A stretch of DNA of 64,000 bases from an uncultured cyanobacterium (GCA_963703315.1 OY969811.1:1632001-1696000); one strand, 5' to 3'. Positions 21,132-34,601 are shown, counted from the stretch's first letter. Numbers and translations are program-made. The notes: a model not told the origin generated them from the letters alone.

Positions 21132-22316
21132 TTACGATCGCGTGAGACTGACTGTTTCTGGATCGTATTGAAATTGGTTAAGCGTTCCTTCTTTAATTTT
21201 TTCAACCACCGCTTCAATTATTTCTAGGGGAACAAGAAACCATTCCCTTGGTTGTACTGGTATGCCAAAGCGATCGGGTAGAGCTAATTCCAATCGAGCG
21301 CTGTCGAAAAACTTGTGCAGCAAAGCCTCAAGTTTTTTGGGATTAATATTTGCTAATTTGAAGGTGACGACAATTTCCACATCGGCGAGTAGGTAGGTGG
21401 GATCTTTTTTGGCGTTAGCAATTCGCTTTTTCACGTCGCCAGATGTCACGCCGATCTTGTGGATGACAGAACGATTTTCGATAATAAAGGGATGATCGCA
21501 TTGGCTTCTCAGCACATAAATGTAACCCGTTGGCAAGTCATCTGCGGCTTCAGTACTGAGAAAAAGTGGTCCCAGATCGGGAGTGGTGATGCGGCGACTG
21601 GTTTTGTCTTTATTTAGAGCGCGTTGCAGCGATCGCAATAATAAATCACTCTCAGTACCATTGTCATAAACAACTCGTAAGCGAGAGTTAGGCAGACCAT
21701 AATCACTGGTAAACCATTCTCCCATTTCGGCAACGATGACTTTCTGCCCATCAAGGATAAACAGATCGTTGAGGTTAATGGTGGCATTGTCTTGATATTT
21801 GATGGTTTGCCGATCGCCTGTTTTTAACTGGTGCTGCACTTGATCAAAGATTGGCTTGAACTGCTCGAAGTCTTGGCAGGGATTACGTTGGGCGATTTCT
21901 TCGGCGGCTTTAATTTCTTGGCGCGATCGCACATAGGTAAGACGGGTAATATCTTGGGCTGAATCGGTTTCAACTTTAAGAGCAGCAAGTAGCTCTTCAT
22001 CTGAGATCTTTTCAGCAGTTAGCTCGACATCTTTATCAGCATCCAATAGACCGTGAGAGTCTAGCGGTTTCAGGATGGCACGACATTCTTCCGATTCCCG
22101 CAGGCGATCAAGCCTCACGGCATAGATCCGCTCGAAGATATCGCAGTCTTCCCTGTGCTGGGGCAGTCTGCCCTGTTCTTCCACAAATCGCTCGATTTCC
22201 TCAAAGCCTGCGACAATGCGTTCCTCTGTAGCCGACCGACCATTATTTTGGGGAGACTGAGCAAAGCCGTCAAGTTCTGACCTTAGTTCATCGAGATCTA
22301 TATCACTATTACTCAT
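21132..22316 (-). CDS. YeeC-like GIY-YIG/T5orf172-family nuclease
   Basis: GYIYVLRS...HKIGVT...LEALLHKFF...PREWF; start overlaps the helicase stop. Confidence 0.85.
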   Translation of the reverse strand: MSNSDIDLDELRSELDGFAQSPQNNGRSATEERIVAGFEEIERFVEEQGRLPQHREDCDIFERIYAVRLDRLRESEECRAILKPLDSHGLLDADKDVELTAEKISDEELLAALKVETDSAQDITRLTYVRSRQEIKAAEEIAQRNPCQDFEQFKPIFDQVQHQLKTGDRQTIKYQDNATINLNDLFILDGQKVIVAEMGEWFTSDYGLPNSRLRVVYDNGTESDLLLRSLQRALNKDKTSRRITTPDLGPLFLSTEAADDLPTGYIYVLRSQCDHPFIIENRSVIHKIGVTSGDVKKRIANAKKDPTYLLADVEIVVTFKLANINPKKLEALLHKFFDSARLELALPDRFGIPVQPREWFLVPLEIIEAVVEKIKEGTLNQFQYDPETVSLTRS

Positions 22317-24447
22317 AACGTCCTTCATCCTTAAAGCGAACAAATGCGGCAGCACCTTCAGCCATACGCTTTTCCCAAGCATCGGGTGAATTAGCCGATG
22401 GTAGCCTTCCTCTTTCCTTTTTGAATTTGAAAGCTCGTACAGCAAGTTCTTTGGCTTCTTCGGGAGTCAGACTCGTGCGCTTGGCGGCAATTACTTCAGC
22501 GATCTGTTTGAGTCGTTCTTCGGTCATCGACTTGGCGAGGATGGCGTAGGCTTCGCCGAAGGGATTGATGCGATCGATTAAATCAATATCTAGTTCAGTG
22601 ACGGAGAAGGCGAACTGACGCACACCGTCAATCAAAGCTGTGTTTGGAGATGGCTCTTGATCTGGTTGATCTAATTGACGCTCTGATTGATCGAGAGAAT
22701 CGGTGGATTCAGGGAAAGCGATCGCACTGGGATTAAGCGTGTAGCCGTTACCTAACTCATTTAGGGATTTCTTGGCTTGTTGAATGACGTTTAGAGCGGC
22801 GATCGCGTGTTGACGCACTGCTTCTTGATCCTGTTCTTCGAGGATGGGAAACTTCTCTTTGACGATTTTGCCCATGCGGACTTGGGTTAATTCTTCGGGA
22901 ACCAACTCCTCATCGAATAGACCACGCTCGATTGCCTGTTTATCTTGGACAAAGGCTGTCACCAGTTCTGTTAAATCTTCGCGACAAATCCGTTTTGCTT
23001 CTTTACTTTTGGGTTCTGCTAGTCCCTTAATTTCTAATTGAATCTGACCCGTCTCTGGATTAATCCCCACATTACATTTATTGGGATCGTAGCCCTCTGC
23101 ACCATAGTCATAGCCTTCTGTCGGTTGATTGTCAGGGCGTTTGGGTTTGAACTCGAAGCGCGGCGCAAGAACTTGTTCCATTAATAGACTGGCGGCGATC
23201 GCTTTCAAGGTGTCATTTACGGCTTCGGTGACGGCTTCTTCACTGGCATCGGGTTCGGCGATGAGATTGGTGAAACGGGCGCGATATTTATTGGGTGCGT
23301 CACGAGTGGCGCGTCCGATGATCTGGATAATTTCGGTGAGGCTGGAGCGATAGCCAATGGTGAGAGCGTGTTCGCACCAAATCCAATCGAAGCCTTCCTT
23401 TGCCATGCCGAGGGCGATGATGATATCCACATGAGCGCGGTTATGTTTTTGGGTGGGATCTTTGAGCGCCGATGTCACTTTGTCCCGTTTAGCGGGATCA
23501 TCATCGACTAAATCCGCAATTTTTAAGATTGTCCCATCGGCAGTTTTGACTAGTTGAAAGCCTGTCTCTGGATCGGCTCCTTGCCATTCTCCTAATTCTT
23601 CAATAATATGTTCCACTTCGCGAATTTTGTCCTTAGTGCTTTCGCGAGAGTTGACATTGGGAATATGCAGAATCGTTTTCTCTTTGGGATTGAGAACCTG
23701 CATAATTTCATCGGCATAGCTACCCGCATAAAAGTAATAGCCTATGTCCAGTTGCTTGAGATATTGGTAGCCGTTGAGTTGTTCGTAATAGGTGTATTTA
23801 ACGGGTTCAAATTTGGCTTCGTCTTCGGGGTGCAGTACGGCGATCGCATCACCACGAAAGTAAGAGCCAGTCATGGCGACAATGTGGGTTTTGTCCCTTG
23901 CCATCAGTTGACCGACATATTCACCTAGTTTGTTATTGGGATTTGCGGAAACATGGTGAAATTCATCAATGGCGATCAAGCGCTGATCAAATGCCTCAAT
24001 GCCAAATTTATCAACGGCAAAGCGGAAGGTGGCATGGGTACAGATCAAAATCTTGACTGCACTATCGAGAAATTTCTGCACCGATTCGACTTTGCCGCCA
24101 TCGTTGCCAGCCGCATCGCAAAGGTTCCATTTGGGTTCTACTTGCCAATCTGCCCAAAAGCCATACTGAGTAAGTGTCTCGTTGTGAAAACTAGCACCAA
24201 TGGATTTTTCAGGAACGACGACGATCGCCTGTTTGAGTCCCTGATTTTCGAGTTTGTCGAGGGCGATAAACATCAGGGCGCGACTTTTGCCAGAGGCGGG
24301 GGGAGATTTGATTAATAAATATTGTTCGCCGCGTTTTTGGTAAGCGCGTTCTTGCATGGGGCGCATACCGAGGGCGTTGGGTTGGGTGGATGTGCCGTTG
24401 TGGGCGTAGGTGACGGAGACGGAGGGGATGGCTTTGGGTTTACTCAT
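22309..24447 (-). CDS. YeeB-like SF2 (DEAD/DEAH) helicase
   Basis: PPASGKS, IDEFHH, MTGS and QIIGRATR motifs. Confidence 0.88.
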   Translation of the reverse strand: MSKPKAIPSVSVTYAHNGTSTQPNALGMRPMQERAYQKRGEQYLLIKSPPASGKSRALMFIALDKLENQGLKQAIVVVPEKSIGASFHNETLTQYGFWADWQVEPKWNLCDAAGNDGGKVESVQKFLDSAVKILICTHATFRFAVDKFGIEAFDQRLIAIDEFHHVSANPNNKLGEYVGQLMARDKTHIVAMTGSYFRGDAIAVLHPEDEAKFEPVKYTYYEQLNGYQYLKQLDIGYYFYAGSYADEIMQVLNPKEKTILHIPNVNSRESTKDKIREVEHIIEELGEWQGADPETGFQLVKTADGTILKIADLVDDDPAKRDKVTSALKDPTQKHNRAHVDIIIALGMAKEGFDWIWCEHALTIGYRSSLTEIIQIIGRATRDAPNKYRARFTNLIAEPDASEEAVTEAVNDTLKAIAASLLMEQVLAPRFEFKPKRPDNQPTEGYDYGAEGYDPNKCNVGINPETGQIQLEIKGLAEPKSKEAKRICREDLTELVTAFVQDKQAIERGLFDEELVPEELTQVRMGKIVKEKFPILEEQDQEAVRQHAIAALNVIQQAKKSLNELGNGYTLNPSAIAFPESTDSLDQSERQLDQPDQEPSPNTALIDGVRQFAFSVTELDIDLIDRINPFGEAYAILAKSMTEERLKQIAEVIAAKRTSLTPEEAKELAVRAFKFKKERGRLPSANSPDAWEKRMAEGAAAFVRFKDEGRYE

Positions 24448-24459
24448 GGATATTTTTGA

Positions 24460-24867
24460 CTAGATCTGGTTGAGGATTTCTGTTGGGGAGTAAACAGGGA
24501 GGCTGCTACCGATGAAGTCTTTACGATCGCGGATTACGATCGCATCAAGCTGGGCAATAGTAGCACAGGCAAGTTGAATACTGTCTTCAAAGTCTTTCAG
24601 TCCAAGAGTAAGAGCCGTTGTAACAGTTTGGTGATCGACGGCACAAAATTGGAGTCCTATCAAGAGTTGATTAATGGCGGCAATAGCAACTTCACGACCT
24701 TCAGTTTTACGAATGATGTAGAAAATATTGGTGATGGTGGTTGCCGCAATATACCCTGCCAAATTACCTCTTTCAATTTGTTCAAAGAGGGCAATCGCAC
24801 TTGTGGCAAATGGTTCTCTTTCTAGGAGTAGATCGAGAACAACGTTGGTATCGATGAGAATTTTCAT
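24460..24867 (-). CDS. PIN-domain toxin
   Basis: ILIDTNVVLD...DFEDSIQLACA...RDRKDF. Confidence 0.88.
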   Translation of the reverse strand: MKILIDTNVVLDLLLEREPFATSAIALFEQIERGNLAGYIAATTITNIFYIIRKTEGREVAIAAINQLLIGLQFCAVDHQTVTTALTLGLKDFEDSIQLACATIAQLDAIVIRDRKDFIGSSLPVYSPTEILNQI

Positions 24868-24875
24868 AGACAGGC

Positions 24876-25118
24876 TTACAGGTATTTTTGGGTGAGATAG
24901 TCTGTATATTCGGATTGCAGATCTTGATCGCTAGGTGTTGAGTCAGCACGTTTGGCAATACCAAGAAGTCCAGTGAGTGTACCAAGGGGAATCACTTGGG
25001 ATGGATTGTGCTGTTTTTGGTGGAGAGACTCAGCGAAGTAAAAAATTTGGTTGATTTGGTCTTCTGGAAGGGTTTGGATAAGTTGATAGAGCTTTTCAGT
25101 AGTTGTCATGATCTTCAT
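24876..25118 (-). CDS. Putative antitoxin (DUF2281-like)
   Basis: Small ORF directly upstream of the PIN gene; LIQTLPEDQINQIFYFAE...YLTQKY. Confidence 0.7.
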   Translation of the reverse strand: MKIMTTTEKLYQLIQTLPEDQINQIFYFAESLHQKQHNPSQVIPLGTLTGLLGIAKRADSTPSDQDLQSEYTDYLTQKYL

Positions 25119-25145
25119 GGGGTAGGGATGTTTTATATTGACTAA

Positions 25146-25988
25146 TTAATTATCCAAAATATCGGGATTTTTAATAGATTTTTTCTCGTCTGAGGCAAGC
25201 CGCCGCTCAACTTTTTTGACATCTTCAGCAGGGGGCAAAGATTCTGGACGAATCCCCCTTTCTAGTAATGTCTTGCGAACTGCTTGATTATTTGTGATGT
25301 GTTCGCTAGAAATTTCTGGCTCTGTCGTCATTTGGTTTTGCTGTGCATTAAAGATCGTAATTTCGGCAGCAAAATCTTTAGCTTTGAGGATAATTGTGGG
25401 TGCAAAGTCTGCAAGAGGTTTGCTATCAGGTACTTTCCACTGAGCTTTCATGGCTTGTGTCGATTTTCCAAATAGGGCGGTGTCTCCTTTACTGCGAATT
25501 GAGGCAAAATTGCGATCGCTACCTGTTTGTTCGTAAATGACTCTCGAAAGTTCTTTTTCGGTTTCTGAAAGTTTTTTTCTAGCAGAAACTCGCTCAACTT
25601 CTAGCAAGCGTTGCTCAATTAACTCGGCTTTTCTGGTTTGAACTGCAAAATATGTCTGAGCAAAGGCAATTTCTTGTTTGCGCGGATCGCCATTTTGGGC
25701 AATCAGGTAACAGGCATAGCGGGTAAGCATGATGTCATCGACCTCTCTTTGACTGCCAGAGCCAAGATCGACCATTTTCCCGACGTTAGCAAAATGGTCA
25801 GCCACGTCATGATCTGAAACTTCGCAAGCCGTTTTTGCTTTGGAAACAACATTTAAAAAGTTATCCCATTTTGTATAGCCTAAAAGATGTTGGAGGTCAC
25901 GGGCAAGCCAATATTCGATGCCATTTTCAGTCTGTTGAGCGTGGGCTTCAAAGTTGTCGGTTAGAGAGTTGATCGTGTCTTTTTGCAT
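25146..25988 (-). CDS. dinD: DNA-damage-inducible protein D (Bro-N-like)
   Basis: EYWLARDLQHLLGY, LTRYACYLIAQNGDPRK, PESLPPAEDVKKVERRL. Confidence 0.85.
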   Translation of the reverse strand: MQKDTINSLTDNFEAHAQQTENGIEYWLARDLQHLLGYTKWDNFLNVVSKAKTACEVSDHDVADHFANVGKMVDLGSGSQREVDDIMLTRYACYLIAQNGDPRKQEIAFAQTYFAVQTRKAELIEQRLLEVERVSARKKLSETEKELSRVIYEQTGSDRNFASIRSKGDTALFGKSTQAMKAQWKVPDSKPLADFAPTIILKAKDFAAEITIFNAQQNQMTTEPEISSEHITNNQAVRKTLLERGIRPESLPPAEDVKKVERRLASDEKKSIKNPDILDN

Positions 25989-26135
25989 GGTCTTGTTTAA
26001 ATTGTGTTTTTATTTTAGGTTTAGTATATTTTTTGTAAATCTGGCTGTCTGGTGATTTTTCTAATCTTTCTGTGTCGCTGATAGCTTGCGATCGCGCTCA
26101 AGTACATCTCAAATAGTATAAACATAATTAATTTG

Positions 26136-26205
26136 GTAGGGGCAGAGCATTCCTGCAACTATTTATTTGGATCACTAGGTTTTATATACAGGAATGCTCT
26201 GCCCT
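26136..26205. repeat. GTAG-type REP-like inverted repeat
   Basis: GTAG followed by 16-bp perfect IR GGGCAGAGCATTCCTG / CAGGAATGCTCTGCCC. Confidence 0.7.
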
Positions 26206-26275
26206 GAATTTAGCGCGATCGCTGATTAATTCTCAACTGCGGAAAGGGTAATAATCCGCACGATCATCTACAAGA

Positions 26276-26374
26276 CCCTCACCCCTAGCCCCTCTCCCAA
26301 AAGGGGAGAGGGGAACAAGAAATTAGTCTTGCTCCCCCTCTCCCTTAATGGGAGAGGGGGCTGGGGGGTGAGGG
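26276..26374. repeat. 99-bp CCCTCACCCC...GGGGTGAGGG palindromic element, intergenic copy
   Basis: Same length and ends as the three copies inside the methyltransferase; opposite orientation. Confidence 0.9.
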
Positions 26375-26380
26375 CGATAT

Positions 26381-29300
26381 TTATGACTTGGGTTTTCGTT
26401 TGCTAGAAGGTTTCCCTGTCTCTTGTTTACTGGTCATTTTGCTGTACATCTCAAACAACTTCTCTAATCGCTCGGTGTCATTTTTAAACCGCCGCCCGAT
26501 GTAAATCCGTTCAATTATTTCGTCATTTCTCTCGTGGGCTTGTCTGACTAATGGGAATTCGCTGTCCATTCTGTCGCGATCGTACATATCGGCAATGGTG
26601 GCAGGAAAGTAATGCTCTCTGGCTAACAATATGTCTTCGGCGCAACGGGTGAGGTCGGTTTTGTTTTGTTCGGTGAGGGTGGGGACGGGGAAGGTGTTCC
26701 AGCCGAGGGTGTTGGAGTAGCGAAAGCTGGTTCCCATTCTTCCACAGACGGTGGCGATCCAGACTAAATGTAATCGTGAGGCGATCAGTGCCATGTTCCA
26801 AAGTGGATCATCGTAAAGAGCAAAAGCAAGATTGCTAACAATAGTTCCTGCTGGACAATAGCCTACAGGCAGATATTCACGACTCTCCGATGAAACACTT
26901 GGTACAATTAGTAATGTTTCAGTTCCAGTTTGACGGACTTCATCAAATCGATGTGGATATTTTGCTCCTTCACGAGTTGCGAGCTTTGAACTAGATAAGC
27001 GCATCATACGAACAGCTTCGATACGTTTATTAATTGCTGGAATCTCATTTGCTTTTGTAGCAGCTTCGTCAGAAATCCATAAACAAAATCTCTGTAAACC
27101 TCTTATAAATTCGACAGATCCCAGAAAAGAACGAACAAGAAGTAACTTTTGATTCATGGAAAGGTTGATTCCTTTTAATTCTTCTGATGATAAAAGTAGA
27201 TTTCCACCATCAACAGGCTTACTGCCAAAACTCATTTCAGAGATATCACTTAATGGCTTTGCTGATTTTTCAACGATTACATTTACTCCACTTACCAAAT
27301 AAGCATTAATATTTATCGCTTCCTTAGCTATTGTTTGTCCTTTATCTTCAACAGAAAATAAACATTTTGCCCTATCCCATTGCTGAGAAATTCCCACCAT
27401 CACCACTATCACCCCAGCGTTATGAGTTGCTAGATTTGCCCATTTGAAAGAAGTATGAGCAAAAGCAATTTCATGACCAGTTGCAAAAATTAGTGACCAG
27501 AGAATTGATACTTGTTGCCCCTGACAAATAGAATTAGTCGAAACAAACGCCGCCGCCGATTGGGTTTGGGTTCCATAATCAGCAGCCTTCATAAACCAAC
27601 CCGCCACATAATCTAGCGACTTCCATAACTTAGTACGTCCATCAAAAATTTGTTTTAAATCATCCTTCTGTTCCTTCGATTGCCAAGTAGAACCCAAATA
27701 AGGCGGATTTCCACAAATATAAGTTTCTCCTCCCTCATTTTTAAAATCAATCTCAGCCTCATCCCGCGTCTCTTGCCACAAATCCAAATCCTCACGCTGC
27801 ACAGTTACACCCTTACCCGTTGGCGGACACAAACTCAACCAATCCAACCGCAACGCATTCCCACAAGTAATCCAATTATCACTCTTTAACGGCAAAAACT
27901 CCGCCAGCGCCAACATTTGCCCCCGATACAACACATCACACTGATACTCCGCAATAATCAACGCCAACCGCGCCACCTCCACCGCAAAATGCCGAATTTC
28001 AATCCCCCGAAAATTGGTTAACGGAATATCTGACTTGCGATCGCCCTCACCCCGCCGCCGATTGATTTCCGCCTCAAGCGATCGCATCTCCTTATAAGCA
28101 ATCACCAAAAAATTCCCCGACCCACAAGCAGGATCAAACACCCGAATCTTCGCCATCCGTAGCCGCAAATTCAACAACTTCCGCCCATTGTCTCCCGCCG
28201 CATCTAACTGAGCGCGAAGATCATCCAAAAACAACGGATTCAGCACCTTCAAGATATTCGGCACACTCGTATAGTGCATCCCCAACGTGCCGCGCTCCTC
28301 ATCATCAGCGATCGCCTGAATCATCGACCCAAAAATGTCAGGATTAATCCGCTTCCAGTCCAAATTGCCAATATGCAACAAATACGATCGCGCAATCTTA
28401 CTAAAACGGGGTATACCCTCACCCCCAGCCCCTCTCCCAGAACGGGAGAGGGGAGTAAGAGATTTTTCTTGTCCCCCTTCTCCCTCCTTGGGAGAAGGGG
28501 CTAGGGGATGAGGGCGATTTACAAACTTAAGACCCTCACCCCCAGCCCCTCTCCCAGTAGGGGAGAGGGGAGTAAGAGGAGATTCTTGTCCCCCTTCTCC
28601 CTCCTTGGGAGAAGGGGTTAGGGGATGAGGGTTAAACCCCTGCCGTACAAGAGTTAATGCTTGATCTAAATTTGTCTCGACTAATTCACTAGATACACGA
28701 ACCACCCTCAAGCCCAAGGATTCAAGTAGCTCTTGTCGTTGACGATCTGCTGCTTGCTGTGAGTCATGCACACCGCCATCAACTTCAACAATTAGTCGTT
28801 CTGCCCCACAGAAAAAATCAACAATGAACGCTCCGATTGACTGTTGTCGCCTGAATTTGCGTCCTTCTAGCTTGCGTCCGCGCAGAGCTTGCCAAAGAAT
28901 ATTTTCACTGGGAGTAGGTTCTTTGCGAAATTGACGAGCCACCTCAGTCATTTTTTGCTTAAGTTCAGGAGGAATTGACCAGTACTCGCCTGAATCAATA
29001 CCCTCACCCCCAGCCCCTCGCCCAAAGGGGGAGAGGGGAGTAAGAGATTTTTCTTGTTCCCTCTCTCCCTTCTTGGGAGAGGGGGCTAGGGGGTGAGGGC
29101 GATCCACAGGATGAGAGCTAAACAACCCTCCATTCACATAAGGAAAAACATTTGCCCAATTGCGAATCCCTAACGCCTCGCGCTCCTGTAATGGTGTCGC
29201 CATCGCCCGAAACAACTCCGCCAAAATCTCATGGGTATTTTCACCATCACTCATCTGCGCGATCGCCTGTGTAAACAACCCATCGCCACTAAAAATATTC

Positions 29301-29869
29301 GTATCTTCCGCAAAAAAACAGAAAATCAACCGCGCCATAAAATGATTAAAATCTTCACGGCGATCGCCCTGATCCCAATCAGGATTATCCTTCAACAACT
29401 CCACATAAAGCCGATTTAGCCGCCCCGTCGCCTTAATATCAAAGGCATTTTCCCGAATTTGCTTAACCGTCGTAATCCCTGCCAACGGCAAGAAAAAGCC
29501 AAAATGATCCGCAAATTTTGGGTATGCACAGGCGATCGTCTCCCCATCCACCAGATTTTCTGCCTCAAAGCTCTCGCCATCCGTCGCCAGAATAAACTTT
29601 GCCTTGTGCTTAGTCGTGGCTGAACTCTCCCGCAAAGCCGTCAAAGTTGCCGATACATCCCCCTCAGCGCAAACCTTCAGATGAATATTATTCCGTTGCA
29701 GCACTCCACCCACATCAGACTGATTCGAGCTACCCTGCTCACTCCTGAGCCGCTTGAGCGTAGTCGCCTTATTGCCAAAAGCCTCTAAAAACGCAAAAGG
29801 AAACTCCGATCCATCAAAAGGTGCTTCCGCCAACCGAGAAACCGCTTCTTCAATTTCGACTGCATTCAT
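26381..29869 (-). CDS. YeeA/MmeI-like N6-adenine DNA methyltransferase with in-frame DUF559 insertion
   Basis: MNAVEIEEAVS start, FDPACGSGNFL (motif I), GNPPY (motif IV), C-terminal TRD region, KNDTERLEKLFEMY end. Confidence 0.9.
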   Translation of the reverse strand: MNAVEIEEAVSRLAEAPFDGSEFPFAFLEAFGNKATTLKRLRSEQGSSNQSDVGGVLQRNNIHLKVCAEGDVSATLTALRESSATTKHKAKFILATDGESFEAENLVDGETIACAYPKFADHFGFFLPLAGITTVKQIRENAFDIKATGRLNRLYVELLKDNPDWDQGDRREDFNHFMARLIFCFFAEDTNIFSGDGLFTQAIAQMSDGENTHEILAELFRAMATPLQEREALGIRNWANVFPYVNGGLFSSHPVDRPHPLAPSPKKGEREQEKSLTPLSPFGRGAGGEGIDSGEYWSIPPELKQKMTEVARQFRKEPTPSENILWQALRGRKLEGRKFRRQQSIGAFIVDFFCGAERLIVEVDGGVHDSQQAADRQRQELLESLGLRVVRVSSELVETNLDQALTLVRQGFNPHPLTPSPKEGEGGQESPLTPLSPTGRGAGGEGLKFVNRPHPLAPSPKEGEGGQEKSLTPLSRSGRGAGGEGIPRFSKIARSYLLHIGNLDWKRINPDIFGSMIQAIADDEERGTLGMHYTSVPNILKVLNPLFLDDLRAQLDAAGDNGRKLLNLRLRMAKIRVFDPACGSGNFLVIAYKEMRSLEAEINRRRGEGDRKSDIPLTNFRGIEIRHFAVEVARLALIIAEYQCDVLYRGQMLALAEFLPLKSDNWITCGNALRLDWLSLCPPTGKGVTVQREDLDLWQETRDEAEIDFKNEGGETYICGNPPYLGSTWQSKEQKDDLKQIFDGRTKLWKSLDYVAGWFMKAADYGTQTQSAAAFVSTNSICQGQQVSILWSLIFATGHEIAFAHTSFKWANLATHNAGVIVVMVGISQQWDRAKCLFSVEDKGQTIAKEAININAYLVSGVNVIVEKSAKPLSDISEMSFGSKPVDGGNLLLSSEELKGINLSMNQKLLLVRSFLGSVEFIRGLQRFCLWISDEAATKANEIPAINKRIEAVRMMRLSSSKLATREGAKYPHRFDEVRQTGTETLLIVPSVSSESREYLPVGYCPAGTIVSNLAFALYDDPLWNMALIASRLHLVWIATVCGRMGTSFRYSNTLGWNTFPVPTLTEQNKTDLTRCAEDILLAREHYFPATIADMYDRDRMDSEFPLVRQAHERNDEIIERIYIGRRFKNDTERLEKLFEMYSKMTSKQETGKPSSKRKPKS
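28416..29099 (-). mobile_element. In-frame repeat-DUF559-repeat-repeat insertion
   Basis: 99-bp repeats at 29001-29099, 28533-28631 and 28416-28514 flank ARQFRKEPTPSENILWQALR...FRRQ...IVDF...EVDGGVH (DUF559/Vsr-like). Confidence 0.8.
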
Positions 29870-30270
29870 ACGCTAACCATCTTCAGGTTTTATTCCTTAA
29901 GCAAATCTTGCCTCGCTATGTTACCAAAAAATTCATGTTAAAATCGAGCCAATGTATCTCTAGAGAGCTACTATGCAAACCACCGAAGCGCTAGTTAAAA
30001 CTTCTGACTTCTCCCCCGTTCCCACAAATCCAAGCGGAATCCCCCGACTGGTTTTATGTTCCCAATGTCTCGCCGCTTCTTGATGGTGAATATCGCCGTT
30101 CATACGTGCTATGGAAAGAGTTTGTCGCACCCTTACTTAATTGCGATTGAATTTGTGTAGTGAAGTCAAGATTTTGTGAATCACTGTAAATTTACATTTA
30201 TATTCCCTTAGATTCATAATAGCTGTACAATCCCGTGTATTTAGTACTTTTGTAACTTTCGTCAGCAGCT

Positions 30271-30810
30271 ATGTCCCAAGTCGAAATGGTTTTGAATATG
30301 TTGCGTCCAGTCGTGGCTTCGATGTCTGCGGCTGATAAGTCTGATTTACTTGCAAAAGTGAGCCAATTACTAGAGGCAAGTGACAGTAAACCTACTGCTT
30401 CTGGACAAAGCCAAAGCAACACCTTGAGCGGGATTAATTTTAGCGGTGGTGCTAATAATGCGCTCAACTTTGCGCCTGTGCAGAATCAAGGCGGCAATGT
30501 CAATGTCGCGTCTAACTTTAATCAGAGTTATGTGGTCAATCCAGAGGTCAAAAAGGTTCTAGAAGACCTCAGCCAACTCAAGGCAAGCATTGCTGAGAGT
30601 CAAGAAATTAATCCTTTACTAAAGGAACCTGTCAAACTGGAAGTCCAGAAACTGGAAGAGGAATTGCAGAAACCTGAACCAAATCCCACTTTTGTAGAAA
30701 GTACGGTTGCTACGATCAAGAAAGGATTAGAAGGAGTGATTACTTTGGCAGAACCCACTGTGAAAATCGCCTCTTTTGTAGCCAAGCTATACGGATTTCC
30801 AGTTCCATAG
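30271..30810 (+). CDS. Hypothetical protein with central Q/N/G-rich motif and helical C-terminal domain (putative NLR partner)
   Basis: 179-aa ORF; aa 46-72 resemble the N-terminus of the downstream STAND protein. Confidence 0.75.
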   Translation: MSQVEMVLNMLRPVVASMSAADKSDLLAKVSQLLEASDSKPTASGQSQSNTLSGINFSGGANNALNFAPVQNQGGNVNVASNFNQSYVVNPEVKKVLEDLSQLKASIAESQEINPLLKEPVKLEVQKLEEELQKPEPNPTFVESTVATIKKGLEGVITLAEPTVKIASFVAKLYGFPVP

Positions 30811-30875
30811 CATTCATCTAAAAAAGCGCGGCTTCGCCGCGCTTTTTTAATTTATCTATTCTATTTAATAAATCA

Positions 30876-33800
30876 ATGACTGAAAGCAAAGACACTTATA
30901 ACGTCTCTCAGAGCCAAGAAAATGTCCTTCAGGATATTAATATTCAAGGCAGCAGCAATATTATTACCTTTGCGCCCACTCAAAATACGGTTATTGAAAC
31001 CCAAGTCATTCAGATTTCCGTCCAAAAGGTGACGCAGCAACAACTGATTAAAGCATCTCCCTACAAAGGTTTAAATCGTTTTAATGCCGCCGATCGCGAT
31101 CGCTTTTATGGACGCGATAAATTAATTAGAAGGATCTTAGAAGCGATTAATGCCAGTGGCTTAACCCTTGTCACAGGCGCATCGGGAAGCGGTAAGTCTT
31201 CCGTAATTCGTGCAGGCGTAATTCCTGAACTCAAGCAGTCTTTGTCGAGTCAGGCAATTAAAGATTTCATTTTCACACCTAGCCAAGATCCCTTTGAATC
31301 GCTTTATCGGTGCTTATTGAGTGAAGAGAAGGATTATCAGTTTAGTGAAAGTGATGCTCAAGTTGTTTTGACCAAAAAAGCTGATGCGATCACACAGGTA
31401 ATCGATCGCCTCAAGGAAAAGGATGAGCGCTGGTTATGGTTTATCGATCAGTTTGAAGAATTATTCACCAACTGCGGTGATGAGAGCATCAGGCAGAATT
31501 TTATTGATGGCATTGTCAAAATCGTGAAGTCTGGCAATGGCTCGGTACGGATTATTTTAGGGATGCGGGCAGATTTTCTGGAGCAGTTTAGCTTCTATCC
31601 TGCTTTAGGAACGATTTTGGATAAGGATAATATTCATCTGGTAACGGAGATGCACCCTGATGAACTACGGCAAGCGATCGAGCAGCCCGCAGCCAAACAT
31701 GGCGTGGTGTTTGAAACAGGGCTAGTTGAACAAATCATTCAGGATGTGCAAGGACAGAGGGGATATTTGCCTTTGTTGCAATACAGCCTTAATCTGTTGT
31801 GGGAAACGGAATGTAAAACCCAAGCTGCCGATGGTCGTGCGGAAATCGAAAATCGGGTTCTCAATATTTCCACCTATAATCTATTGGAAGGTGTTAGAGG
31901 TGCTTTACAGACTCGCGTTGACAAGCTTTATCGGAATTTATCTTCAGACCAGCGATCGCTTACCAAACAAATATTTTTAAAATTAGTCAATATTGTCGAT
32001 ACGGATGGCGGTAGTCGTCCTGTGAGCCGTAGAGCCAATCAGAGCGAATTTGAAGGAAAAGATTTTGAGAAAACGCTCCTCGCCACTTTTGTAAAAGAGA
32101 ATCTCTTAGTAAGCAGTACTGAATATCAAAACGAGCAGGGACTAGATTTTCAAGGTACTTCTGGCAAGAAACAATATGCGACGGTGGAAATTGCCCACGA
32201 AGTTCTCTTGAGTTCTTGGGATGAGCTAAAGCGTTGGTTGGAAGAAGAGAAGGAAACAATTATTCTCAAAAATTATCTTGCTGATGAAACTAATCGTTGG
32301 CAAAGGATTAGGCAAGAAAGTAATGAGGCAAAGGCAAAAACAGAATTACTGAAAGGGGCGCGACTAGAGCAGTTATATACACTTAGGGAAGCAAAAGCTT
32401 TTGAGAAATTAGGTGGCTTGAGCTATTTAGAAAATGAATTTATCGATGTTAGTTTTGCATGGAGTAAGCAACAGGAGGCACAGGTCAAACGCCGCCGCCA
32501 GATTACTGTTGGCGCTCTCACATTCTTTTTGGCGATCGTGTCTGGATTGGCTGTAATCGCTCAAAAAAATGCCGATGAAGCCAACAGAGCCAATGTCAAT
32601 CAAGGTTTTATTTCCGCCAGTTACAAGATGACCTCATTACTCTACGACAACCTTCAGCTTGAAGCCTTGGTGGAAGCAGTGGAAACAGGCGATCGCTTAC
32701 AACGCAGTCCCAATAATTCCCTCGCATCTTCTGATGTGAAGATGCGGGTGGCTTTAGCCACAGGCGAAGTCATCTATAACATCAAAGAAAAGAACCGCCT
32801 CATCGATCACAGCCGAGATGTTTCGGCGATCGCCTATTCTACGGATGGTAAATATATTGCGTCAGGCAGCTATGACACCACCGTAAAGCTTTGGGATATC
32901 AGTGGTAAGAAATTACATACCTTCACAGGACATAAAGACGTTGTAACCAGCATCGCCTTTTCCAAAGATAGTAAATTCTTAGCCTCATCCAGCATTGATC
33001 GCACTGTCAAGATTTGGAATATTGAGAGCAAAGAAGTCAAAACCCTAGACTTTGCAGAGGGAATTAATAGTGTCGTCTTCTCAACCGATGGCAAGCAATT
33101 GGCGATCGCTAGTGGCAATACTGCCACCATTATTTCTGCTGATAGTGGCGCGAAAGTGCAAACCCTCACAGGACATAGCGGTGATGTCGTCAAAGTAGTT
33201 TTTTCACTCGATGGCAAGCTATTAGCAACCGCTAGCGCTGACCAGACCGTTAAAATCTGGAGTAATGGCAAAGAATTACAAACCCTCAGAGGACATAGCA
33301 GTGCGATCGCCAGCGTGATTTTTTCGCCCGATGGCAAACAGTTAGCATCAGCGAGTGCAGACAATACGGTGAAACTCTGGAATATTGACGGGAAAGAACT
33401 GCAAACCCTTAGAGGGCATCGTAATAAGGTTACAGATGTCGCTTTTTCACCTGATGGCAAGAGCCTAGCAACTGCAAGTGATGATCGAACTATTAAAATC
33501 TGGACTATTGCAGGTCAAGAAATCCAGAATCTGCAAGGACATAGCGATATTGTGCGAAGTATTGCGTTTGCCAATGACGGTAAAAATTTAGCATCTGCAA
33601 GTGCAGATAAAACTATCAAAATCTGGAATCTTGATGCGCCTCAACGCCTAGTTCTGGAAGGTCATAGCAGGGGTATCCGCAGCATCGCTTTCTCTCCTGA
33701 CAGTCAAAAAATTGTCTCAGCGAGTGCAGATAAAACTATCAAAATCTGGAGCAATGGGAAAGAATTAAAGACTCTATCTGGTCATGCCCAAGTAGTTACT

Positions 33801-34601
33801 TCCATTGCTTTTTCACCAGATGGCAAGAAGATCGCATCGGGCAGTTCTGACGATATGATCAAAATTTGGGATAGTGAAGGGAAGGAACTTCAAACGCTCA
33901 CAGGGCATAGCAGCGTAGTTTATAGCGTTGCTTTCTCCACCGATGGTAAGTATTTAGCCTCCTCAAGTCTAGATAAAACGGTCAAGCTATGGAATGCCGC
34001 AGGTCAAGAACTACAGACAATTAGTGAAGGTATTGGCGAAGTTCTGAGTATTGCTTTCTCACCTGACAGCAAGCAATTGGCTCTGGCGAGTAGAGATAAA
34101 ACGGTTAAGCTCTGGAATATCGAAACTAAGAAATTACAAACCCTTGGACAACATACTGATCAGGTCACTAGCATTGCCTTTTCCCCCGATGGCAAATATA
34201 TTGCCTCCGCCAGTAGCGATCGCACTATCAAAATTTGGAGCAGCGATGGCAAAGAGTTACAAACTCTCAAAGGACATAGTGACGCGATCGCAACTGTTGC
34301 TTTTGCACCCAATAGTCAACAATTGGCGACCGCGAGTGCCGATAGAATTATCAAGGTTTGGAATATTGATGGCAATGAATTGTTCACACTCAAAGGTCAT
34401 AATGATGCGATCGCCTCGGTCGCTTTTTCCCCTGATGGTAATTATTTAGCATCAGCAAGTAACGACAAAACGATCATCCTTTGGAATATTAATTTGGAAA
34501 GTCTGAAGCAGTTGGGATGTAATTCACTTAATGATTACATCTTTACTCAAACTGATTTAGATCCAAAAAATTCCAATCTCAGAATGATTTGTAAATCATG
34601 A
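30876..34601 (+). CDS. STAND (nSTAND1-type) NTPase with TM helix and WD40 repeats
   Basis: SPYKGL, GASGSGKSS, IDQFEELF, LPLLQ, EIAHE; TM ITVGALTFFLAIVSGLAVIA; about 14 GH...W repeats. Confidence 0.92.
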   Translation: MTESKDTYNVSQSQENVLQDINIQGSSNIITFAPTQNTVIETQVIQISVQKVTQQQLIKASPYKGLNRFNAADRDRFYGRDKLIRRILEAINASGLTLVTGASGSGKSSVIRAGVIPELKQSLSSQAIKDFIFTPSQDPFESLYRCLLSEEKDYQFSESDAQVVLTKKADAITQVIDRLKEKDERWLWFIDQFEELFTNCGDESIRQNFIDGIVKIVKSGNGSVRIILGMRADFLEQFSFYPALGTILDKDNIHLVTEMHPDELRQAIEQPAAKHGVVFETGLVEQIIQDVQGQRGYLPLLQYSLNLLWETECKTQAADGRAEIENRVLNISTYNLLEGVRGALQTRVDKLYRNLSSDQRSLTKQIFLKLVNIVDTDGGSRPVSRRANQSEFEGKDFEKTLLATFVKENLLVSSTEYQNEQGLDFQGTSGKKQYATVEIAHEVLLSSWDELKRWLEEEKETIILKNYLADETNRWQRIRQESNEAKAKTELLKGARLEQLYTLREAKAFEKLGGLSYLENEFIDVSFAWSKQQEAQVKRRRQITVGALTFFLAIVSGLAVIAQKNADEANRANVNQGFISASYKMTSLLYDNLQLEALVEAVETGDRLQRSPNNSLASSDVKMRVALATGEVIYNIKEKNRLIDHSRDVSAIAYSTDGKYIASGSYDTTVKLWDISGKKLHTFTGHKDVVTSIAFSKDSKFLASSSIDRTVKIWNIESKEVKTLDFAEGINSVVFSTDGKQLAIASGNTATIISADSGAKVQTLTGHSGDVVKVVFSLDGKLLATASADQTVKIWSNGKELQTLRGHSSAIASVIFSPDGKQLASASADNTVKLWNIDGKELQTLRGHRNKVTDVAFSPDGKSLATASDDRTIKIWTIAGQEIQNLQGHSDIVRSIAFANDGKNLASASADKTIKIWNLDAPQRLVLEGHSRGIRSIAFSPDSQKIVSASADKTIKIWSNGKELKTLSGHAQVVTSIAFSPDGKKIASGSSDDMIKIWDSEGKELQTLTGHSSVVYSVAFSTDGKYLASSSLDKTVKLWNAAGQELQTISEGIGEVLSIAFSPDSKQLALASRDKTVKLWNIETKKLQTLGQHTDQVTSIAFSPDGKYIASASSDRTIKIWSSDGKELQTLKGHSDAIATVAFAPNSQQLATASADRIIKVWNIDGNELFTLKGHNDAIASVAFSPDGNYLASASNDKTIILWNINLESLKQLGCNSLNDYIFTQTDLDPKNSNLRMICKS

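Follow-up and report, generated by a model that had tools for sequence, protein, structure and literature searches.

A short motif shared by an nSTAND1 receptor and an adjacent small helical protein in a cyanobacterium: a candidate amyloid-type signalling pair

The locus and its two genes

That NLR receptors signal in an amyloid-type manner is established for fungi and animals and, from 2024, also for a single bacterial antiphage system. A pair of adjacent genes that follows this genetic logic, but with another NTPase clade, another motif and an inverted partner architecture, is described here from an uncultured cyanobacterium. The pair lies in a stretch of 64,000 nucleotides (GCA_963703315.1 OY969811.1:1632001-1696000), called the window, from whose first letter positions are counted. 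The upstream gene encodes a small protein (the partner), the downstream gene encodes an NLR-like STAND protein (the receptor), and both proteins carry a short motif rich in Q, N, G and S. The two genes are best explained as a two-component module of the NLR-plus-partner type that serves immunity or cell death, and receptor and partner are very probably coupled in function through the shared motif. The genes and the features of their products are as follows.

30271..30810, + strand: partner gene, an open reading frame (ORF) of 179 aa; two-helix hairpin, motif-bearing linker and C-terminal four-helix domain
30379..30540, + strand: partner Q/N/G/S-rich, putatively beta-prone linker, aa 37-90; unstructured in the monomer model, with a predicted local distance difference test score (pLDDT) of 51-56
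30406-30486, + strand: partner core motif, aa 46-72, QSQSNTLSGINFSGGANNALNFAPVQN; within the linker
30541..30792, + strand: partner four-helix domain, aa 91-174; constant throughout the family; bears a conserved KPxPDK loop and an LAEP..K.A..VAK tail
30876..34601, + strand: receptor gene, NLR-like, 1241 aa; N-terminal motif, nSTAND1 NTPase, transmembrane-like (TM-like) segment and WD40 propellers
30909..30986, + strand: receptor copy of the motif, aa 12-37, QSQENVLQDINIQGSSNIITFAPTQN; then a putatively beta-prone TVIETQVIQISVQK stretch into the NTPase
31059..32318, + strand: nSTAND1 NTPase module, aa 62-481 (Pfam)
32502..32570, + strand: TM-like segment, about aa 543-565, ITVGALTFFLAIVSGLAVIAQ; KRRRQ before it; between the NTPase and the WD40 repeats
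32751..34517, + strand: WD40 repeat region, about aa 626-1214, presumed sensor (Pfam)

Residues 62-481 of the receptor match nSTAND1 (PF20703) with an E value of 3.6e-105 and 353.2 bits against a cut-off of 27.1, and the WD40 region is matched in 13 stretches (E 2e-167, 537 bits). The name nSTAND1 was given by Kaur et al. (2021, PMC8195603). Pfam finds no known domain in the first 61 residues of the receptor, in agreement with the initial annotation of the sequence, which had seen no N-terminal effector domain on the STAND protein besides the motif. The TM-like segment has a mean Kyte–Doolittle hydropathy of 2.39 over 19 aa, and a comparable segment is found at the same place in 27 of 30 partner NLRs from other loci (L036-L106); of the three under the threshold, one is truncated where its contig stops, and the other two reach 1.63-1.65 at this position. 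The receptor is probably anchored in the membrane by this single hydrophobic segment, and the KRRRQ cluster suggests that the motif and the NTPase probably face the cytoplasm. If the segment is a true span, the sensor, whether of WD40 or pentapeptide type, would face away from the cytoplasm.

In an AlphaFold2 model of the partner built from a 70-sequence alignment, helices span residues 3-16, 20-36, 91-109, 115-132, 139-152 and 157-174. Residues 3-36 and 91-174 are modelled with confidence (pLDDT 84-91 for the latter), and the motif lies without structure between these two helical parts. The core motif is followed in the linker by a second G/N-rich stretch, QGGNVNVASNFNQSY. The partner had previously been described as carrying its motif internally and a helical domain at its C-terminus; both points agree with the model, in which aa 46-72 of 179 are followed by a helical domain of about 90 aa, with four helices in aa 91-174.

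A motif common to both proteins

The core motifs of partner and receptor are identical at 14/27 positions with one gap, a count that reproduces the initial annotation, and both ORFs and both peptide stretches lie where it had placed them. Using BLASTP with compositional adjustment, the match widens to 17/37 positions (E = 3e-6, as a single comparison). The two cores have a Smith–Waterman score of 65; shuffles of both give a mean of 19.9 (standard deviation 4.2, maximum 44), and 0/20000 reach 65. For longer segments (59 and 60 aa) the score is 69 against a shuffle mean of about 24, which was reached in 0/5000 shuffles under each of three schemes. Composition alone, which the initial annotation had named as a possible source of the similarity, is therefore excluded as its cause. 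When the 4.57-Mb genome is searched with a profile of the motif, only these two sites are found (E 3.2e-16 and 1.0e-14), and the next match has an E value of 0.17. The DNA of the cores is identical in only 49/82 aligned columns; thus, recent gene conversion is not the cause of the likeness, which is kept at the protein level.

The motif contains 12.6% Q, 12.1% N, 10.9% G and 15.6% S, compared with 7.0, 3.1, 4.2 and 4.8% in the helical domain, and L, K and E make up 2.8, 1.9 and 1.7% of it, compared with 13.3, 9.8 and 8.6%. The motifs of BASS systems are enriched in Q, N and G and depleted in K, P and L (Dyrka et al., 2020, bioRxiv 10.1101/2020.01.06.895854), and the composition seen here fits that of published amyloid signalling motifs. 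A complex prediction for receptor residues 1-65 with partner residues 37-179, run without controls, scored 0.02 (mark 0.32) and counts neither way on binding.

The partner family

The partner has no match in Pfam or NCBIfam. Its 23 close homologues, for which Pseudanabaena is the sole organism named, are 48-98% identical to it; across the 24 close sequences, Q46, Q48, N50, G60, F67, P69, Q71, Q73 and G75 are invariant. A profile of the family matches 162 clusters at E ≤1e-3 and 96 at E ≤1e-10 among 1.84 billion cluster representatives. The partner domain is found (E ≤1e-5) in 37/401 genomes of a class sample and in 12/401 genomes of a phylum sample. It is single-copy in 34 of the 37 matching genomes of the class sample and present in two copies in the other 3. 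Judged by these matches the family is small and cyanobacterial. The pair is patchy even within the genus, where 5/29 other genomes have the domain.

Alignment of distant members reveals a constant module in which a Q/N/G/S-rich stretch of about 35-45 residues is immediately followed by a helical domain of about 90 residues. The signature of this domain is L..LK..I, the KPxPDK loop, LKKGL.GV and an LAEP..K.A..VAK.W tail. What precedes the module is variable. Forms of 131-144 aa have no such part, and those of 170-180 aa (the window type) start with a hairpin of about 40 aa; in other members the module comes after a CHAT protease, CHAT plus a TRADD-like N domain, the TRADD-like N domain alone or HetE-N. 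CHAT was matched in 3/3 of the long forms first tested (Pfam E 1e-11 to 1e-14). A search for longer fusions among proteins of 644-2000 aa with alignment A3 gave none at E 1e-5, which is weak evidence.

One short-form pair of the window type lies in another cyanobacterial family (L073, G686:C10:728736-729269; profile E 1e-67). Its motif resembles that of a metagenomic group with 50-57% identity (P0018-P0023), which suggests either transfer between families or a vertical range wider than the genus.

Matching of the motif within pairs

Every close locus that has sequence downstream of the partner gene carries a receptor with the motif (10/10). This count leaves aside L010 and L012, where the contig ends before the receptor, and two loci from a metagenome scan, L013 (30% identity to residues 1-95, with pieces resembling nSTAND1 spread over broken frames) and L014 (which matches over 25 residues). 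Small changes occur on both sides of a pair: L005 has QNQ in both genes where other loci have QSQ, and the receptor motif of L011 has gained one residue and reads NFAPTQN, nearer to that of its partner.

More distant loci were examined over at most about 8 kb on each side, where the contig allowed, with the domain detected by hidden Markov model and nSTAND1 by phmmer. Among 30 effector/nSTAND1 pairs from other cyanobacteria, all are co-directional and the effector gene comes first in 26. The two genes overlap or are separated by at most 25 nt in 17 pairs, by 26-300 nt in 12 and by 3484 nt in one. The motifs of these pairs are matched in lineage-specific ways. For instance, the two members of the pair read SQSQAISIGRDFHLAGEGVTADFSQT and SQSQDVQIGRDFRVDGTGHQVDFSQT in L087, SQSIGSMTSSGSGNKVAVTQAGRDAKIDQS and QQSVGNTTASGAENRAAVANAGRDVRIDQH in L041, and PTFGNISIGGN...LTFNQ and PTIGDITITGN...LTFNQ in L089; such matches are also plain in L081 and L085. 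Cognate matching was examined by Smith–Waterman scoring of 28 pairs, after removal of 2 near-duplicates. Cognate scores have a mean of 63.4 and non-cognate scores a mean of 42.2 (standard deviation 16.6), and the cognate sum was obtained in 0/20000 permutations, a count that is not a true probability because the loci are related. The cognate receptor ranks first for 9/28 effectors. The motif thus diverges between lineages and stays matched within pairs. The pairwise conservation that the initial annotation had expected of orthologous loci is seen both in the close loci and in these distant, diverged pairs.

An unbiased scan, in which each segment preceding the domain was set against all ORFs of 120 aa or more at that locus, gave the first 85 residues of a STAND NTPase as the top match in 28/35 loci. 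Two of the 28 matched receptors are not of the nSTAND1 class and have NB-ARC (L094) or NACHT (L096) instead; a weaker relative pairs with another NACHT receptor (L101). The occurrence of the motif on nSTAND1, NB-ARC and NACHT receptors indicates that it is a portable N-terminal module.

The arrangement at L084 (1931-5328; G428:C35) differs: the gene for a protein with CHAT, motif and domain overlaps by 4 nt with the next gene, whose NACHT product starts with a near copy of its neighbour's four-helix domain and continues with a motif and then the NTPase. This locus was considered as a classical all-in-one form, a view weakened by the fact that the NACHT protein keeps a motif and that its domain nearly duplicates the neighbour's, so that a local rearrangement looks likely.

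A second, distant member of the domain superfamily is present in the same genome outside the window (G000:C1:247659-249621; L042 7659-9621, minus strand). It consists of DUF4926, a GSGDNIAGDKVMRDKID stretch and an AbiTi/PDC-M14B-like domain, and two genes upstream of it, after an LRR ORF, there is a COR-B protein whose end is GNNDNVAGDLVRRDKIG. The sequences GSGDNIAGDKVMRDKID and GNNDNVAGDLVRRDKIG are another shared short motif, here at the C-terminus of a Roc-COR-type protein.

Two further features of the window may bear on the expression of the pair.

30191..30220, + strand: promoter-like site TTTACA-18 nt-CATAAT, from a consensus scan (10/12 matches); about 50 nt upstream of the partner gene
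30819..30849, + strand: strong terminator-like hairpin in the 65-nt intergenic spacer; 14-bp stem with an A-run before and a T-run after

The promoter-like site is a consensus match only, one of 15 such sites in the region where 9.7 are expected. A hairpin occupies the same intergenic place in 7/9 related spacers that were folded. The hairpin of the window is retained in L001, L002 and L004, with L002 altered on both sides of the stem, and other hairpins replace it in L005, L006 and L009. In distant relatives, the partner and receptor genes overlap instead. The intergenic hairpin may give a high ratio of partner to receptor.

The four-helix domain of the partner

The constant domain of the partner can be placed among known families at the level of the domain. 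Residues 70-170 match positions 156-259 of the 267 in the PADLOC model PDC-M14B (E 4.4e-7); this likeness covers the last 100 or so positions of models of 261-275 positions and is not full-length. The same match is found in 8/8 tested relatives of the main family. No match of the window partner to the AbiTi model was obtained at E 0.01. When the partner family is aligned by hhalign with a group of 47 sequences taken from the weaker matches of the profile search (A6), the probability is 99.3% (E 4.5e-20) over 88 columns, which is the whole domain. In A6, 42/47 sequences match PDC-M14B and 5/47 match AbiTi, and one member (P0138) is an AbiTii-AbiTi-like fusion. Within the wider group, the domain follows AbiTii, DUF488, COR-B, DUF4926 or N-termini without an assigned family. 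Taken together, these profile comparisons point to homology between the four-helix domain and the group that matches PDC-M14B and AbiTi, the likeness to both (AbiTi belonging to the lactococcal AbiT system) residing in the C-terminal four-helix domain. We know of no mechanism for AbiTi. A search of a limited literature collection did not find the term PDC-M14.

Structural comparisons are less specific. Foldseek found nothing in the PDB at E ≤0.001, and a PDB sequence search with the domain found no relative (best E 0.2). A wide fold search with VIA returned generic helical bundles, the top match being the helical part of the YicC endoribonuclease (8ver_A; root-mean-square deviation 2.1 Å over 84 residues), with a Z score of 10.9 that lies below the value of about 13 advised for helical bundles. 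AbiTi was superimposed on the same entry, 8VER, in a 2026 review (PMC13064643), which agrees with homology to AbiTi in that this entry also tops the fold search here. In the ESM Atlas, residues 85-179 match unnamed clusters (0.91-0.92) and one DUF4404 cluster, in which 21% of the members have that family; this is a lead only. The last helix is the most hydrophobic one (mean Eisenberg hydrophobicity <H> 0.36, hydrophobic moment 0.34), and no TM-like segment is present. As modelled, the domain is an ordinary soluble-looking bundle.

The domain is single-copy in most genomes and absent from the receptor in 34/35 loci, L084 alone having it. Thus, it does not behave like a twinned adaptor.

Relation to known systems

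In the HET-S/NWD2 system of Podospora, the NLR carries an N-terminal copy of the motif and the partner is activated by templating. With its second G/N-rich stretch, the cyanobacterial partner brings to mind the paired pseudorepeats of HET-s. The polarity is the reverse, as HET-S has its helical HeLo domain ahead of the prion-forming domain, whereas here the helical domain follows the motif.

The closest bacterial parallel in gene layout is given by the Bell/NLR pairs BASS1-10, in which adjacent, co-directional and often overlapping genes share a Q/N/G-rich motif of about 25 aa between the N-terminus of the NLR and the partner (Dyrka et al., 2020). BASS pairs occur in filamentous cyanobacteria, with Pseudanabaena among the hits, and CHAT is named as an alternative partner domain (Dyrka et al., 2020). 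The family described here differs in that its NTPase is mostly nSTAND1, no Bell domain is recognised, and the motif lies inside the partner, ahead of a four-helix domain. The BASS screen was anchored on Bell-domain proteins of <200 aa with neighbours matching Pfam NACHT or NB-ARC (Dyrka et al., 2020), so that its census would miss this family, although a CHAT-linked example in figure S5 of that work may be a member of it. The motif had not been recognised initially as that of a named BASS/RHIM family. From the BASS1-10 sets (PMC8086366, supplement 1, in the part examined), FAPVQN, FAPTQN, TFNQTQ, NAIQAGG, IDQSRH, QSQSFG, QSQSIG, QQQSLG, QQQSAG and ISGSNN are absent, as is SQSQ in a relevant context, the latter occurring only within BASS5-type sequences of another pattern. 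By eye, the core GINFSGGANN of the window resembles the BASS7 core GINIKGGTNT (a common pattern of GIN-x-x-GG-x-N against GINIKGGxN), and the QSQ head and FAPxQN tail do not. Relative to BASS, the new elements would be a motif outside the BASS1-10 sets examined, its internal position and the lack of a recognised Bell domain.

Experimental proof of amyloid signalling in bacterial abortive infection comes from Bab/Agp of E. coli (BASS11), which likewise consists of adjacent genes with a copy of the motif at the N-terminus of the receptor (Ibarlosa et al., 2024, bioRxiv 10.1101/2024.11.07.622273). Bab/Agp sits in a defence island, as the window pair sits in a defence-like neighbourhood, and the BASS11 motif family is also linked to CHAT, NACHT and NB-ARC. 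By its description, Bab differs from the window partner in having an N-terminal Bell-like domain, a hydrophobic first helix and a C-terminal motif (Ibarlosa et al., 2024).

Two other principles are related. In the EAD principle, a shared element joins a STAND NTPase to interchangeable effectors such as CHAT, TRADD-N and HetE-N (Kaur et al., 2021). EADs are folded and present on both partners, whereas the twinned element here is short and unstructured, and the folded domain is confined to the partner in 34/35 loci; Pfam scans of the window pair and of the long forms gave no EAD family match. EACC1-caspase modules couple caspase-like proteases and STAND sensors to a death effector that is small and not an enzyme, and are known from cyanobacteria among others (Evans et al., 2025, bioRxiv 10.1101/2025.11.14.688446). 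By analogy, this logic could apply to the CHAT-fused relatives. EACC1 is a beta-containing pro-toxin activated by cleavage (Evans et al., 2025), whereas the present domain consists of helices only and is linked to its receptor by the motif they share; EACC1 was therefore dropped as an identity for the constant domain. In a limited literature collection, no paper was found that links nSTAND1, AbiTi or PDC-M14 to amyloid signalling.

A templating model and its rivals

From the adjacency of the genes, the shared motif at the N-terminus of the receptor, the matching within lineages, the composition of the motif and its disorder in the monomer model, we infer a templating model in three steps. First, ligand sensing by the WD40 region would lead to NTP-dependent oligomerisation of the receptor. 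Second, the clustered N-terminal motifs would form a cross-beta (amyloid-like) nucleus. Third, the partner, presumed to be the more abundant protein, would have its otherwise disordered motif templated into this fold by the nucleus and would polymerise. The output would be whatever flanks the motif of the partner. In the short form of the window, the AbiTi/PDC-M14B-like four-helix domain would be the executioner, as it is the only sizeable module, and its chemistry might concern membranes or RNA. In the long relatives, polymerisation would bring the N-terminal CHAT proteases into proximity, like caspases on the apoptosome. All steps beyond the shared, co-varying motif are drawn by analogy with HET-S/NWD2, Bell/BASS and Bab/Agp, and we give amyloid-like templating as a whole a probability of about 0.55.

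Several observations weigh against this model. The motif of the partner is internal in all relatives and not C-terminal, unlike that of every described BASS/FASS effector, and neither a Bell nor a HeLo domain is recognised in the partner. A Bell-, HeLo- or MLKL-type fold is not among the best 50 matches listed by Foldseek or VIA, and the eleven substrings of the motif family are without occurrence in the part of the BASS1-10 sets examined. The four-helix domain contains no TM-like or strongly amphipathic helix. An amphipathic, membrane-attacking end, as proposed in the initial annotation, is thus not borne out (the hydrophobic maximum being <H> 0.36), and an action of the domain on membranes, for which analogy is the argument, is doubtful. 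The fold matches, with the top Z score below the advised value, would fit any four-helix bundle, and the YicC match, read literally, would favour RNA over membranes as the target. The helical domain stands behind CHAT in many relatives and therefore need not be the sole effector, or an effector at all. As for the pairing, many cognate receptors rank mid-field, down to 20 of 28, because the large CHAT clade shares nearly one motif; part of the cognate signal is clade structure, and the loci are not independent. In the unbiased scan, four short-form loci (L039, L072, L074 and L076) have an adjacent nSTAND1 receptor with background likeness only (scores 30-37), L079 and L090 have no receptor within the short stretch covered, and the seventh miss is L084.

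The main rival to amyloid is a finite homotypic complex: the motif would be a docking element that forms a beta-sandwich or is joined by beta-augmentation, neither amyloid nor self-propagating, and acts as a short adaptor on the EAD principle. Pair-specific matching fits this equally well, the CHAT forms would require induced proximity only, and homotypic adaptors between STAND proteins and effectors are common in these bacteria (Kaur et al., 2021). However, described EADs are folded and mostly alpha-helical (Kaur et al., 2021), and an element of 27-40 residues that is rich in Q, N, G and S and has no predicted structure is the signature of published amyloid signalling motifs. Docking of this kind is a possible but lesser alternative to templating.

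It is rather improbable that the partner is instead a negative regulator or decoy, whose motif caps or competes with that of the receptor while the real effector lies elsewhere. The short form in the window lacks a recognisable enzymatic domain, the terminator-like hairpin after the partner gene would allow an excess over the receptor, and the receptor itself has a TM-like segment, all of which would suit a decoy. Conversely, relatives have the module joined to CHAT, TRADD-N, HetE-N or AbiTii, a pattern of output modules and not of inhibitors; the receptor has no effector domain of its own; and no third conserved gene accompanies the pair, the flanks differing between loci. Least probable is that the likeness is a functionless relic of common descent or of fusion and fission (for which the frequent gene overlaps, 17/30, and the rearrangement-like domain-motif-NACHT fusion of L084 could be cited) or a shared site of protease cleavage or degradation (given the CHAT proteases of many family members). 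A relic would decay independently in both genes, whereas the motifs stay matched within pairs, and for the window pair synonymous differences exclude a recent conversion. The presence of the motif on NTPases of three unrelated classes speaks for selection acting on a portable function, and the window pair encodes no protease.

Under the templating model, the interest of the locus goes beyond the single pair. Through its constant domain, the partner is connected to AbiT and to a PADLOC candidate system. The roughly 30 natural pairs with diverged but matched motifs form a specificity series for templating, and the family is a handle on whether polymerisation switches on bacterial caspase-like CHAT proteases. 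A broader proposal, which we regard as speculative and rather unlikely as it stands, is that the motif together with the AbiTi/PDC-M14B-like domain is a general executioner gated by amyloid-like templating, with inverted polarity and under many sensors (nSTAND1, NACHT, NB-ARC, Roc-COR and AbiTii). If so, amyloid-type signalling would extend well past the Bell-anchored BASS census, lactococcal AbiT might work likewise, and polymers formed on a membrane-anchored NLR would activate CHAT proteases by bringing them close together.

Genomic neighbourhood

The pair is flanked by RelA/SpoT-Uma2 on one side and DM13-ROK-DnaK on the other. The window and the related genome L001 share the flanks RelA/SpoT-Uma2 and pair-DM13-ROK. 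Between these, the window has a block of about 9 kb (21132-29869), and at the corresponding place L001 (4879-5980) has nothing but a transposase-like ORF. The block encodes T5orf172/MUG113, a DEAD/ResIII helicase, Bro-N and an MmeI-type IIG restriction-modification enzyme (PADLOC E 3e-280). The neighbourhood is variable and defence-like, and the block looks like a variable island.

In the ORF of the MmeI-type IIG enzyme (26381-29869, minus strand), a DUF559 domain (Vsr-like endonuclease, aa 306-408) is inserted in frame, after the helicase-spacer domain and before the methyltransferase domain. Three repeats of about 33 aa, nearly identical and rich in proline and glycine (HPLAPSPK.GE...TPLS..GRGAGGEG), flank it.

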